Shown: positions 40,055-60,774 of the stretch, one piece after another
Position numbering within the stretch: position 1 is the stretch's first letter
Layout of the letters: each line of letters starts with the position of its first letter
From: an uncultured cyanobacterium
Lineage (GTDB): Bacteria; Cyanobacteriota; Cyanobacteriia; PCC-6307; Cyanobiaceae
Assembly (NCBI GenBank): GCA_963765575.1
Contig: CAVXWZ010000011.1
Span: 1-64,000, forward strand
Direction: 5' to 3'
Length of the DNA: 64,000 nucleotides
Program-made: the position numbers and the translations under genes
The notes under the pieces: generated by a model
What the model was told of the DNA's origin: nothing
Databases searched by the model: none
What the model saw: only the letters and a program-made list of their open reading frames with translations

Positions 40055-42757
40055 ATGGGGCTCTTCGCGCGCTGGCCCGAACGCCAGGCCCACCTGCTGC
40101 GCTGGCTGCTGTTGCTGGGCTGGCTGGCCCTGATCGCCTCGCTGCTGATCCCCCAGCTGGAGGGCTGGGCCCTGCGCCCGCCGCTCTGTCCCGACGCCGT
40201 GGCCTGCCACGCCCACGGCGGCAACCAGCTGTTCTGGGGCACGGTGGTGCCCAGCGGCCTGCTGATCCTCGCGGCCGGCAGCCATGAGCTCTGGCGCCGC
40301 ATCTGTCCGCTGGCCTTCGTCTCCCAGCTGTTCCGGGCCCTGGACCGCCAGCGCCGGGTGCTGGGCCGCAACGGCAAGCCCCAGCTGGCGAAGGTGGAGG
40401 GCGACTCCTGGCTGGGACGTCATCACCTGGCCCTGCAGTGGAGCCTGCTGATCGCGGGGCTGTGCCTGCGCCTGCTGGTGGTCAACAGCAGCCCCCTGGG
40501 GCTGGGCTTGCTGCTGGCGCTCACCGTGGTGGCGGCCATCGCCGTGGGCTGGGCCTATGCCGGCAAGGCCTGGTGCCAGTACGTCTGCCCGATGGGAGCG
40601 GTGCAGCAGGTGGTCACCGGTCCCCGCGGGCCCCTGGCCAGTGCCGCCCACCTCGATTCCAGCCGCATCACCCAGTCGATGTGCCGCACGGTGGCCGAGG
40701 ACGGCCACGAGCGCTCGGCCTGCGTGGCCTGCCAGTCGCCCTGCATCGACATCGATTCCGAACGCACCTACTGGACAGGCCTGGAGGGCAAGCGGGGCCT
40801 GCGCTGGGCCTGGCTCTCCTATCCGGGGCTGGTGCTGGCGTTCTTCCTGCTCAGCCGCCAGCAGGGGCCGGCCTCGATCGAGATGCTGCGCAGTGGTCTG
40901 TGGGCCTTCGATGCCAACCTGCCCGCCCGCGCGCTCGACCTCTGGCCCCGGGCCGACGCCGGCTGGGGCCTGCCGAGGCTGGTGGCGATCCCGGCGCTGC
41001 TGAGCGCTGCCGGTGCCGCCAGCGTGGCGCTGTTCGGCCGGGTGGAGAGCGGATTCGAGGCCGGCCTCAGCGGCGACCACAGCCCGGAGCGCGCCCGGGC
41101 CATGGCCCGCTCGCGCACCCGGCTGCTGGCCACGTTCCTGGCGGTGAACCTGTTTTTCTGGTTCGCCGATCCCAGCCTGGGGACCGCCGGCGGCAAGGTG
41201 GGCCAGCTGATCCGCTCCCTGGTGCTGATCGCCAGTGCGATCGGGCTCTACCGCGGCTGGCCCCGCGACGCGGATGCCTATCGCCGCGAAAACACCAGTG
41301 CCAGCCTGCGCTCGCAGCTCAAGAAGCGCTTCCCGGATCTGGGGTCCCATCTCGATGGACGCACGCTCGACGAGCTGACCCCCGGCGAGGTGTTCACCCT
41401 GGCCAAGGCGTTGCCGGCCCAGCTGGCGGCCACCAACCAGGCGCTCTACCGCGATGTGCTGGCCGATCTGTTCCGCAGCGGCCGCCTGGAGCGGGCCACC
41501 AGTGCGCTGCAGCTCGAGGAGCTGCGCCTCTCCCTGGGGCTCGAGCAGGAGGACCACCACGCCGCCATGCGCGAACTCGCCCTGCAGGATCCCCAGCTGC
41601 TGGAGCTCGATGAGCGCCAGCGCGCCAGCCGCAACCTGCGCGAGGACGCCGCGGCCGAGGCGATCCATGACTTGCTGCATCTGGCCGGGCAGCGCGATCT
41701 GCGCCCCGGCGTCCTCGACACTGCCCAGGCCGGCCGGCTGGAGATGATCCGCCAGGACTCGGGCCTCGAGGATGGGGCCTGGCAGGCGCTGCTGCTGCGC
41801 TTCGGTCCCCGCTCGGCCTTCGCCCGCCAGCAGCTCGCTGCCGGCATGCAGGATCTGCGCGCTGAGCTGGCCCGCCGCCAGGCGCTGGCCACGGTGGCCG
41901 CTGACGACGGCCTGCTCAGGCCCCTGCTGCCGGTGATCGACCTGCGCATCGTCGGCCGGCTGTTGCCCCTGCTGCCGCTGCTGGCCGAGTTCCAGGCCGA
42001 CGACCCCCTGCTCCAGCACTTCGCCGCCCTGCAGGCCCAGCTGCCCCCGGGGGTGATCGCTGAGGTGCTGCGCCGCGACCTCACCCTGCTGCCCCATCCG
42101 GCCCCCCAGCCCCCCCTGCCGCTGGAGCCGCTGCCGGATCCCGTGAGCGTGCTGGAGGATCTGTGGAGTGACCCTGACCCCGAGAACGCCTTCTGGGTGC
42201 TCTGGCTTCTCGACCAGCGCGATCCTGCCCGGGCGGCCCGCCTGCGCCGCACCCCCCGCAGCGGTCTGCCCAGCTCGGCCCATCTCGAGGCCCTGCTGGC
42301 CGGCCGGCCGCCGGCCGAAGCCGAGCTGCTGCAGCTGCTGGTGCAGGTGCCGTTGCTGGCCGAGTTGTCGCCTTCAGCCCTGTTCAATGCGGCGCTCTGG
42401 GGCCAGCTGCGCGCCTGGCCGGCCGGCGCGGCGATCCTGCGGCCCGGAGACGAGGCCACCTGGATGGCGATCCTGCTGGAGGGCTGCGCCCTGGTCAGGG
42501 GCGACGACTGGCAGGCGCGGGTGTCGGCCGGGGAGACCCTCGGTGAGATGGCCCTGCTCAGCGGTCGCCCCCGCGGTTCGGCGGTCACGGCCCGGGAGCC
42601 GGTGCGGGCCCTGGTCTTCGATGCCGCCGCCTTCGAGCAGTTGCTGCACCAGTCCTCGGGCTTTGCCCGCAGCCTGCTGCGCCAGCAGACCCGCCGCATC
42701 GAGCGCTACCAGGGGGAGCCGGGCGCCGGGGCTGCTCCGCCCCCGGTGGGCCGCTGA
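40055..42757 (+). CDS. Membrane 4Fe-4S-binding protein with a C-terminal cyclic-nucleotide-binding domain
   Basis: [28 protein letters not shown], multiple TM helices; cNMP cassette [19 protein letters not shown]. Confidence 0.85.
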
Positions 42758-42792
42758 GCGATCATGCCCCCACAGGGTTGATGACCAGAGCC

Positions 42793-58800: not shown

Positions 58801-58860
58801 GCCGCCACTCCGCTGCCGCCACTCTCCTGACGCCACTCCCCTGACCCCATGCCACTGCCC
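58801..58860. repeat. Degenerate short tandem repeats with a gccactc core
   Basis: gccgccactccgct-gccgccactctcctga-cgccactcccctga-ccccatgccactgccc. Confidence 0.6.
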
Positions 58861-60774
58861 CGCCCGGCTCCGGTGGCCGTGCTTTCGGCCCTCTGCACGC
58901 TTGCGGTGGCGGTGCTGAGCGCCGTGCCCCCCCAGGCGGTGCGCACCCTTGAGGGCGGGCTGGAGGCCCGGCTGCTGCGGCTGCGGGGCCCGCGGCCGGT
59001 TCCCGACGCGGTGGTGCTGGTGACCATCGACGACTCCACCCTGCAGCAGGGCGCCTGGTTCAGCGATGAGGGGGCCGCCGGGGAGCCGGTGCCCTCCTGG
59101 GCGCAGGGGATTGACACCCTGCCCTGGCCCCGGGCCCGCTTCGCCGACCTGCTCGAGCGCCTCAGGGAGGCCGATCCGGCTGCGGTGGCGGTCAACGTCG
59201 TGTTCCAGGGGAGCAGCGGCCAGGGCCCCGGCGATGACGCCGCCCTGGCCGTCGCCCTGGCCCGCTCCCGCGGCCGGGTGGTGCTGGCCGCCGAAGTGCT
59301 CGACATCACCGAATCCGGCTTCGCCGGCCTCAGCCTCGTGCAGCCGGCAGCGGTGCTGCTGAGCGCCGCCGGGCCGGCCAGTGCCGGACTCACCAACATG
59401 CTGCCGGCGACCTCGGGGGAGGCCTCACCGCGCCATCCCCAGGCCTACAGCCGCTCCCTGCAGGCCGTCAACGCGCCCTTGGCCCTGCCGTCGTTGCCCA
59501 CGTTGCTGCTGGAGCGGGGTGGGCGCCAGAGCCGCCAGAACGATGCCGAGCGCCGGCTCAACTTCTACGGTCCCGAGGGCCACTTCCTGCGGCTGCCGGC
59601 CTGGGAGGTGCTCGATCCGCAGCGCTGGAGCAACCATCCCAGCCGCAGTGTCATGCGCGGAGCGCTGGTGCTGGTGGGCCCGGTGGTGGTGCAGGGCGGT
59701 TCCGGCACCTCCAGCCCCTACGGCAGCCTCTCGGGGCTGGAGGTGCTGGCCACGGCCACGGCCAATTCGCTGCAGGGGGACGGCCTGCGGGCGTGGCCGG
59801 CCGCGCCCCTGCCGCGCGGGCTGCTGGCGGCGCTGCCGCTGCTGATCGTGGCGCTGCTGGTGCCGCTGCGGAGCCAACTGCGCTGGCGGCTGGGCCTGGT
59901 GGCGGCGGTGCTGGCCGCCCAGTTCGGCGCCGCCGTGCTGGCCCTGGCCTGGGCCCACGCCTGGATCCCCCTGCTGCTGCCCGCCCTGGGGCTGGTGGCG
60001 CTGGGGGGGCTGCACACGGGCTCGGCCTACCTGGACGAGGAGCGGGAGCGCCGCCGCCTGCGCCGCACCTTCGAGCGCTACGTGGCCCCCAGCGTGGTGG
60101 CCGAGATCCTCGCCGACCCCAGCGCTGCCGAGGGGATGCTGCGGGGCCGGCTGCGGCCGGTGACGATCCTGTTCACCGACATCAAGGGCTTCACCCAGCT
60201 CACCAACCGCCGCAGCCGCAGCGGCGAGATCGAACTGCACGTGCGCCAGCTCAACCACTACCTCGCCGCCATGGTGGAGGTGGTCACGGGCCATGGCGGC
60301 ACCATCGACAAGTTCATCGGCGATGCCGTGATGGCCGTGTTCGGCTCGCCGCTGAGCCGTGGCACGGCGGCCGAGGCCCTGGCGGCGGTGCGCTGCGCCC
60401 AGGAGATGCGCCGCACCCTGCGGCGCCTCAACCAGCAGTGGGCGAGCGAGGGCTGCACCGGCCTGGACAACGGCATCGGCCTGGCCTCGGGTGAGGTGCT
60501 GGTGGGTCAGATCGGCAGCCCCCGACGCATGGAATTCACCGTGATCGGCGACAAGGTCAACCTCGCCAGCCGCCTGGAGGGCCTCACCCGCAACCTCGAG
60601 GTGCCGGTGCTGTTCGATGCCGCCACCGCCGAGCTGGTGCGTGCTGAGATCCCGGTGCGCAGCCTCGGGGAGACCCCCATCAAGGGGATGGATCCCCAGC
60701 CGGTGTTCAGCTGCGAGGCCGTGGCCGCCCTGGAGGACAGCCCGGAGGGGCCGCCGGTGCTGGCCGGTCCATAG
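58849..60774 (+). CDS. CHASE2-domain class III adenylate cyclase (copy 3)
   Basis: VLVTIDDS, LPWPR, LNFYGP, SGLEVLA; LFTDIKGFT, DKFIGDA, FTVIGDKVNLASRLE, IKG. Confidence 0.93.
   Translation: MPLPRPAPVAVLSALCTLAVAVLSAVPPQAVRTLEGGLEARLLRLRGPRPVPDAVVLVTIDDSTLQQGAWFSDEGAAGEPVPSWAQGIDTLPWPRARFADLLERLREADPAAVAVNVVFQGSSGQGPGDDAALAVALARSRGRVVLAAEVLDITESGFAGLSLVQPAAVLLSAAGPASAGLTNMLPATSGEASPRHPQAYSRSLQAVNAPLALPSLPTLLLERGGRQSRQNDAERRLNFYGPEGHFLRLPAWEVLDPQRWSNHPSRSVMRGALVLVGPVVVQGGSGTSSPYGSLSGLEVLATATANSLQGDGLRAWPAAPLPRGLLAALPLLIVALLVPLRSQLRWRLGLVAAVLAAQFGAAVLALAWAHAWIPLLLPALGLVALGGLHTGSAYLDEERERRRLRRTFERYVAPSVVAEILADPSAAEGMLRGRLRPVTILFTDIKGFTQLTNRRSRSGEIELHVRQLNHYLAAMVEVVTGHGGTIDKFIGDAVMAVFGSPLSRGTAAEALAAVRCAQEMRRTLRRLNQQWASEGCTGLDNGIGLASGEVLVGQIGSPRRMEFTVIGDKVNLASRLEGLTRNLEVPVLFDAATAELVRAEIPVRSLGETPIKGMDPQPVFSCEAVAALEDSPEGPPVLAGP

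Follow-up and report, generated by a model that had tools for sequence, protein, structure and literature searches.

Three cyclase–partner gene pairs in one region

The DNA analysed here (the window, that is, the whole stretch of 64,000 nucleotides; G000:C11:1-64000) comes from the genome of an uncultured cyanobacterium of the Cyanobiaceae (contig CAVXWZ010000011.1; genome 2.71 Mb, 99.97% complete) and carries three genes for membrane-bound class III nucleotide cyclases with a CHASE2 sensor domain (cyclases A, B and C), each directly beside a co-oriented gene for a small FecR-like protein (partners A, B and C). Judged by the genes present, the organism is probably a picocyanobacterium of the Synechococcus/Cyanobium type. 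An initial annotation made from the letters alone had proposed these pairs, and the open reading frames (ORFs) and Pfam domain matches bear them out, together with the stop/start overlap in pair B (GTGA) and the reversed gene order of pair A (Table 1). All three pairs lie within 15 kb; the gene for partner A starts 57 bp after that for cyclase A, and the gene for partner C ends 48 bp before that for cyclase C. Two membrane proteins with domains for binding cyclic nucleoside monophosphates (cNMPs), an MscS-type channel and a 4Fe-4S protein, were likewise recovered by Pfam in the same region. The pairs sit, as annotated, in separate gaps of an alaS-speA-ndk-thiO-gatB backbone; in most relatives a single gap holds the order ndk-FecB-CyaB-(FecC-CyaC)-thiO, and the spread seen in the window is therefore a derived order.

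The three cyclases match Pfam CHASE2 (E-values of 3e-41, 1e-26 and 8e-27 for A, B and C, respectively) and Guanylate_cyc (2e-17, 6e-17 and 5e-19), and hydropathy places a hydrophobic helix at the N terminus, before CHASE2, and two to three further helices after it; this is the layout of a CHASE2 receptor cyclase (that is, helix, CHASE2 ectodomain, membrane helices and cytoplasmic cyclase). They represent all three CHASE2 genes and three of the four class III cyclases of the genome, and their mutual identity of 30–36% over near-full-length alignments marks them, by sequence, as old paralogues. In class III cyclases two aspartates bind metal, a lysine and a threonine specify ATP, and an asparagine and an arginine serve the transition state. 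Inspection of the motifs found both aspartates, the ATP-type lysine and threonine and the Asn/Arg pair in each of A–C, and the ATP-type lysine in the top-listed motifs of every cyclase type of the family; a window cyclase also aligns to solved class III cyclases. The three enzymes are thus predicted to make cyclic AMP (cAMP), and cGMP may also be considered as their product. For the CHASE2 ectodomain of cyclase C (window 58930-59814), a confident model was obtained (predicted local distance difference test score (pLDDT) of 93); it has no Foldseek match among solved chains at E ≤ 0.001 (best VIA Z of 5.2), and a search of PDB sequences with a CHASE2 profile returned no match. Such weak matches establish neither novelty nor difference of fold, and the ectodomain is a target for structure determination.

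The label 'FecR-domain' that the initial annotation gave to the three neighbours holds for partner B at the Pfam cut-off of 24 bits (41.3 bits); partners C (17.3 bits) and A (15.7 bits, E = 0.04, in a second search only) fall below it, yet are predicted to have the FecR/PupR fold. Partners A and C share 39% identity over 125 amino acids, and a 99-row profile of the partner family matches PupR (E = 0.012). An AlphaFold2 model of mature partner C (pLDDT 95) matches PupR (Foldseek E = 5e-6; VIA Z 15.4, root-mean-square deviation of 2.3 Å over 129 residues) and BDI_1681 (Foldseek E = 8e-6; VIA Z 13.1), and the next VIA row has a Z of 5.3. We assign the periplasmic FecR/PupR β-fold to all three partners, to C on the basis of this model and to A and B by homology. 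In all 118 FecR-like ORFs of the family loci examined, a hydrophobic segment stands at the N terminus, directly ahead of the mature domain, which itself contains no membrane helix; we read this segment as a signal peptide, and the partners are therefore likely to be exported. Only 20–40 residues precede the segment, which ends in A-x-A or similar. A Gly-Thr motif is present in 98 of 99 family partners (Gly-Ser in the other) and is placed by the model where strands join. Self-cleavage of E. coli FecR occurs at Gly181-Thr182, with the halves remaining associated until the signal arrives (PMC12036975), and a Gly-Thr motif is described likewise for stand-alone FecR-domain proteins of Leptospira (PMC13719327). 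Type C partners hold exactly two cysteines in 54 of 56 cases.

Table 1 Features of the window. Positions are those of the 64,000-nucleotide stretch.
Feature	Position	Strand	Description
Cyclase A	45694..47610	+	TM-CHASE2-3TM-class III cyclase (TM, transmembrane helix); FLSDVRGFT, DKYMGD, TMIGDTVNLASRL
Partner A	47668..48504	+	Five Cys; Gly-Thr 48130-48135; signal-peptide-like N terminus; start may be 47698
Partner B	53623..54366	+	Pfam FecR above cut-off; no Cys; Gly-Thr 54094-54099; stop overlaps start of cyclase B (GTGA)
Cyclase B	54363..56219	+	CHASE2-TM-class III cyclase; FTDLEGFT, DKFIGD, TVVGAAVNVASRL
Partner C	58033..58800	+	Predicted PupR-like β-fold; Cys109/Cys126; Gly-Thr 58438-58443
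Cyclase C	58849..60774	+	CHASE2-TM-class III cyclase; FTDIKGFT, DKFIGD, TVIGDKVNLASRL
MscS-cNMP channel (bCNG type)	48526..50004	-	Pfam; phosphate-binding-cassette motif FGE...PRSA
Membrane 4Fe-4S (Fer4_5) protein	40055..42757	+	Pfam; C-terminal cNMP domain
SIMPL (DUF541)	50164-50880	+	Pfam; often accompanies the channel
DUF3307	51006-51389	+	Pfam; often accompanies the channel

Conserved and type-specific pairing

CHASE2 genes occur in 77 of 151 genomes of the family and FecR-like genes in 61, of which 60 are also CHASE2-positive. We examined 100 loci around 150 listed CHASE2 matches (16 further matches are unlisted; genomes G038 and G125 were left out). These loci contain 161 cyclase ORFs, which fall into the three types of the window (18 of type A, 45 of type B, or 44 after removal of the second fragment of one broken gene, and 42 of type C), a fourth type, D (50), and six fragments. 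FecR genes were typed by their best match to the three of the window, in agreement with clustering; as kin are not independent, the pairing counts are descriptive only. Among the matches listed, a same-strand FecR gene of the matching type is found no more than 2.3 kb away in 17/18 (A), 44/44 (B) and 40/42 (C) cases, and a co-oriented FecR gene at a distance of up to 3 kb accompanies 0/50 type D cyclases; eight type D genes have a FecR gene on the opposite strand, which in each case belongs to a neighbouring pair. Of 17 CHASE2-positive genomes without a FecR-like gene, the 16 inspected hold only type D. About 16 FecR-like matches lie outside the 100 loci, so orphan FecR-like genes exist as well. 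The pairing is real, conserved and type-specific in the survey of gene neighbourhoods that the initial annotation had called for, and the lack of conservation that it had named as damaging was not seen.

Type D is absent from the genome of the window (examples from relatives are L035:5022-11107, L042:8986-18339 and L086:4589-10879). Its cyclases are often found near genes for TpsB (ShlB/POTRA; 23 ORFs) and for TPS-CHAT caspase-like proteins (9 ORFs; three of each scanned).

The FecR and cyclase trees agree at the level of types. In quick IQ-TREE and FastTree reconstructions (with a long-branch warning), for which each genus supplied a single pair of each type (36 pairs and outgroups), a single branch sets each of A, B and C apart from the rest in both trees; the support for B in the FecR tree is 61 alone and 100 with the copy of G203, a B-like pair from another family that groups with B in both. 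A split of type A into short and long forms is mirrored in both trees. The pairs also move as units between backbone gaps: the C pair is intact in five different gaps (its order inverted twice), the B pair is found in three gaps and also away from the region, and in one independent metagenome contig (approximately 91% identity) speA joins ndk and the entire B pair is absent. The claim that each FecR protein belongs to its own cyclase is thus upheld by the counts, by the congruent trees and by the joint relocation of the pairs.

Across the phylum, the partner-family profile matches 42 of 201 genomes. From 72 FecR-like matches outside the family, 40 loci were taken; a CHASE2 gene adjoins the FecR-like gene in 14 of them, and its output is a cyclase in six loci, a Ser/Thr kinase in two and a His kinase in three of six scanned. 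The FecR gene follows CHASE2 whatever the output, which points to CHASE2, and not the catalytic domain, as what it goes with.

Some relatives elaborate the partner. The three partners of the window are minimal and carry no cargo domain; partner A has none of the outer-membrane barrel of its long type A relatives (L089:11137-12984, L054:11261-13297, L104:6836-8611 and L061:11194-13437), in which an inverse-autotransporter-like barrel appears to be inserted within the FecR fold (atlas score of 0.96 to PF11924 clusters, for one query). The apparent C-terminal part of the fold comes after this barrel, so that completion of the fold could depend on the state of secretion. Extra type C FecR copies adjoining a C pair (L056:8857-10011 and L044:8820-9992) carry an appended or inserted domain that may be CAP-like (atlas 0.94, a lead only), and in G075 three FecC-type genes follow one another. 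Neither the barrel-like nor the CAP-like insert matched a Pfam family, and the atlas labels serve as leads.

Candidate cNMP effectors

The initial annotation had named the channel and the 4Fe-4S protein as linked effectors, and the data favour the former. The channel has the make-up of a bacterial cyclic nucleotide-gated (bCNG) protein by Pfam and motif, namely MscS β- and C-terminal domains and a cNMP domain with the cassette arginine; the GE...R motif is found in 51/51 full-length channel copies in the loci. Of the 151 genomes, 71 have the channel gene, and 67 of these also have CHASE2; within nine mixed genera the overlap with CHASE2 is 26, where 18.1 would be expected (0 of 200,000 draws; kin are not independent). 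Among the 66 genomes for which a match was listed, no more than 10 kb separates the channel gene from a CHASE2 gene in 56, and the two are on different contigs in nine. As it accompanies type D as well as types A–C, the channel is linked to CHASE2 cyclases in general. In many relatives, genes for SIMPL (DUF541) and DUF3307 proteins recur next to it, and these could be part of the module. Loss of genes in blocks may explain part of the linkage. We regard the channel as the best-linked candidate effector, with putative gating by cAMP.

The 4Fe-4S protein occurs in 66 genomes, 13 of them without CHASE2, and its cNMP motif is undetectable in several relatives. We reject a specific link to the cyclases on the grounds that the gene is 10 kb or less from a CHASE2 gene in only 15/51 cases and that the within-genus overlap is 16 against 13.8 expected (p ~0.05). 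The genome holds a second 4Fe-4S-cNMP paralogue (G000:C1:418483-421307), apparently frameshifted or split. The further proposal that cAMP acts locally on channel and redox effectors found no support and is likewise rejected: a further nine genes for cNMP-binding proteins lie elsewhere in the genome, among them those for two Crp-family regulators, a patatin, a glutaminase and an ABC transporter.

Other features of the region

Independent metagenome contigs match several module genes with 0–2 differences over hundreds of bases. NCBIfam gave no name above its cut-off to any module gene, and a scan of positions 45000-61000 returned no promoters and two terminators, which is the level of shuffled sequence. 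In its 5′ half (window 42870-43900) the only alaS gene is split among at least five frames; because metagenome contigs of relatives differ there by about ten one-base insertions or deletions, the break is most likely an assembly error and not a pseudogene. Upstream of the 4Fe-4S gene, an unannotated ORF region (window 38914-40020, + strand) has what we take to be a sulfotransferase-type resemblance. Between gatB and coaE (window 62324-63226) lies a gene for a 300-residue membrane protein with no match in Pfam or NCBIfam and no homologue in the 100 related loci.

Relation to known systems

In Sinorhizobium meliloti, the envelope protein NsrA, a large outer-membrane barrel, is said to hold a FecR domain. 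There, CHASE2 cyclases are reported to be activated through NsrA as a separate protein (PMC13001267, PMC7529298), and that organism likewise has three CHASE2 membrane cyclase paralogues (CyaK, CyaD1 and CyaD2) with a FecR-domain gene, SMc02177, in the same regulon (PMC5498481). In contrast, each cyclase here has its own small, barrel-less partner next door, the ORF list and Pfam show no outer-membrane barrel receptor of the NsrA kind among the window genes, and the linked effector is a bCNG channel instead of a Crp gene.

Closer in gene arrangement are two other published cases, in which, as in the window, an exported FecR-domain protein is encoded next to a CHASE2 sensor in a conserved arrangement. 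A cluster of the Campylobacterota combines a CHASE2 adenylate cyclase, a phosphodiesterase, a FecR-domain outer-membrane protein and a tetratricopeptide repeat (TPR) protein, for which one pathway was proposed (PMC9239204). The cyclase and FecR-domain gene cluster together as they do here; that system differs in having one cluster per genome and an outer-membrane FecR protein, as opposed to three type-specific two-gene pairs, and no phosphodiesterase or TPR gene was detected beside the window pairs. The BiofilmReg operon of Burkholderia places a LysM-FecR protein (COG4254) with a CHASE2 histidine kinase and is described as kept across genera (PMC5192318). It resembles the window in the exported FecR-domain protein directly beside a CHASE2 sensor and is unlike it in its two-component kinase output and in the LysM domain of the partner. 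In magnetotactic bacteria, periplasmic MtxA is likewise encoded beside a CHASE2 cyclase (PMC4439547). The FecR-CHASE2 pairing itself is therefore already known in other bacteria, which limits the surprise, and the window holds a triplicated variant of it.

With FecR and PupR proper the partners have in common the predicted periplasmic β-fold (Z 15.4) and the Gly-Thr motif; they differ in having no cytoplasmic anti-sigma domain (no Pfam match), TonB receptor or extracytoplasmic function (ECF) sigma factor, and the match covers only PupR residues 111-251. By analogy, the partners appear to work like the periplasmic half of FecR and are not FecR anti-sigma factors.

For bCNG channels, a review describes the physiological role as not understood (PMC13591265). 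In Synechococcus, Dore et al. (2020, PMC7522525) place adenylate cyclases near cAMP-regulated MscS and CHAT proteins in the genomic island module Syn_GI122; as here, MscS proteins with a C-terminal cNMP domain lie near adenylate cyclases in Synechococcus/Cyanobium. The main-text description fits the module of the window and refers gene composition to Supplementary Table S7; 'FecR' and 'CHASE' do not appear in that main text, and Table S7 may list FecR genes. The open-access literature searched yielded no paper on FecR-CHASE2 pairs in cyanobacteria. The suggestion that the system is uncharacterized in picocyanobacteria needs qualifying in two respects: the pairing is published for other phyla, and cyclase/MscS neighbourhoods are published for Synechococcus islands.

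Proposed mechanism and alternatives

We propose, with a probability of about 0.58, that each FecR-fold protein is a dedicated periplasmic co-sensor of its own CHASE2 cyclase. Every step beyond the gene anatomy is an inference. By analogy with E. coli FecR, the partner would be exported, would cleave itself at the Gly-Thr motif, with the two halves staying together, and would dock on the CHASE2 ectodomain of the neighbouring cyclase. An envelope cue would then alter this docking, either through loss or proteolysis of the C-terminal half or, in relatives with a fused outer-membrane domain, through a pull by way of that domain, and the change would pass via the membrane helices to the cyclase dimer. 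Three parallel envelope-sensing inputs would thus probably feed one cellular cAMP pool, which may act on the co-inherited bCNG channel and on the Crp-family and other cNMP proteins encoded elsewhere. The apparent barrel and CAP-like additions in relatives speak for seeing the partner as a modular adaptor.

Several observations weigh against such a role. The strongest is that the FecR-domain, Clr-regulated gene smc02177 of S. meliloti is reported to be dispensable for the plant-signal perception tested (PMC5498481). In the family, three cyclases have no adjacent partner (G024, G057 and G079), the partner-less type D indicates that CHASE2 cyclases can exist without this partner, and the non-independence of kin means that the pairing counts overstate the case. 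Comparison of FecR distances with CHASE2 or with cyclase-domain distances gave a mild difference for type B (0.77 versus 0.70; 95/100 bootstraps) and a null result for type C (0.855 versus 0.846; 60/100). Outside the family, 26 of the 40 FecR-like loci have no CHASE2 gene within approximately 5 kb.

The first alternative, which we consider improbable while giving it the most weight among its competitors, is that the partners are envelope or surface proteins that never touch CHASE2 and are co-regulated outputs of the cAMP circuit. This would agree with the induction of smc02177 by Clr/cAMP, besides its dispensability, and with the study of Leptospira FecR-domain proteins as host-interaction proteins (PMC13719327), and operon-like spacing (overlap, 48 and 57 bp) alone would keep the genes together. 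However, one shared cAMP pool gives no reason for a type-matched output gene that never swaps, the FecR gene accompanies CHASE2 kinases too, and these produce no cAMP, and a crude pattern scan found no Crp-like site (NGTGA-N6-TCACN) in the window.

Alternatively, the partner might be a constitutive structural subunit or chaperone of CHASE2 that conveys no signal, with CHASE2 binding another ligand. This would explain the strict cognate pairing equally well, and the cargo-free partners of the window agree with it; we nevertheless judge it unlikely, as relatives add apparent cargo at the fold (the barrel in long type A and, as a lead only, the CAP-like domain in extra type C copies) and the near-invariant self-cleavage motif fits a switch better than a scaffold.

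A third possibility is that the backbone is an insertion hot spot at which unrelated accessory genes are gained and lost in blocks. Type D cyclases, TpsB/CHAT genes and other cNMP genes do occupy the same gaps, the island module of Dore et al. (PMC7522525) is of this sort, and such hitch-hiking likely accounts for the 4Fe-4S gene and part of the channel linkage. For the pairs it is largely refuted, and quite improbable as an overall account, given that type-matched partners relocate jointly, both from gap to gap and to places outside the region, and that the same pairing recurs in other families and phyla. Finally, a canonical anti-sigma role, in which the partner would connect a TonB-dependent receptor with an ECF sigma factor, shares the fold and the Gly-Thr motif and can be rejected as exceedingly unlikely: as the initial annotation had noted for the window, neither component is there (PF00593 has no match in the whole 99.97% complete genome and none of its seven Sigma70_r4_2 matches falls in the window), and the N terminus ahead of the hydrophobic segment is too short to accommodate a cytoplasmic anti-sigma domain.

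The co-sensor reading can be extended to a broader model, in which most CHASE2 sensors have the FecR fold as their ligand, in the form of a self-cleaving periplasmic adaptor with swappable cargo (an outer-membrane barrel, a CAP-like domain or LysM), the three pairs of the window are insulated from each other and cAMP gates the bCNG channel. We offer the whole as a tentative and, taken together, doubtful conjecture.

Significance

What is new here is the set of three co-diverged minimal pairs, the partner-less sister type D, the conserved self-cleavage motif and the tight linkage to a bCNG channel. Picocyanobacteria have long been described as mostly without cAMP machinery (PMC4284465), and despite that description 77 of 151 sampled family genomes carry a CHASE2 gene. 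Three pairs in one small genome, together with type D, amount to a three-by-three test of specificity with a built-in negative control. The stimulus perceived by CHASE2 was stated to be unknown in 2016 (PMC5192318); if the FecR fold is its ligand and cAMP gates the channel, these cyanobacteria would possess a circuit leading from the state of the envelope through cAMP to an ion channel, and both CHASE2 and bCNG channels would gain a physiological role.

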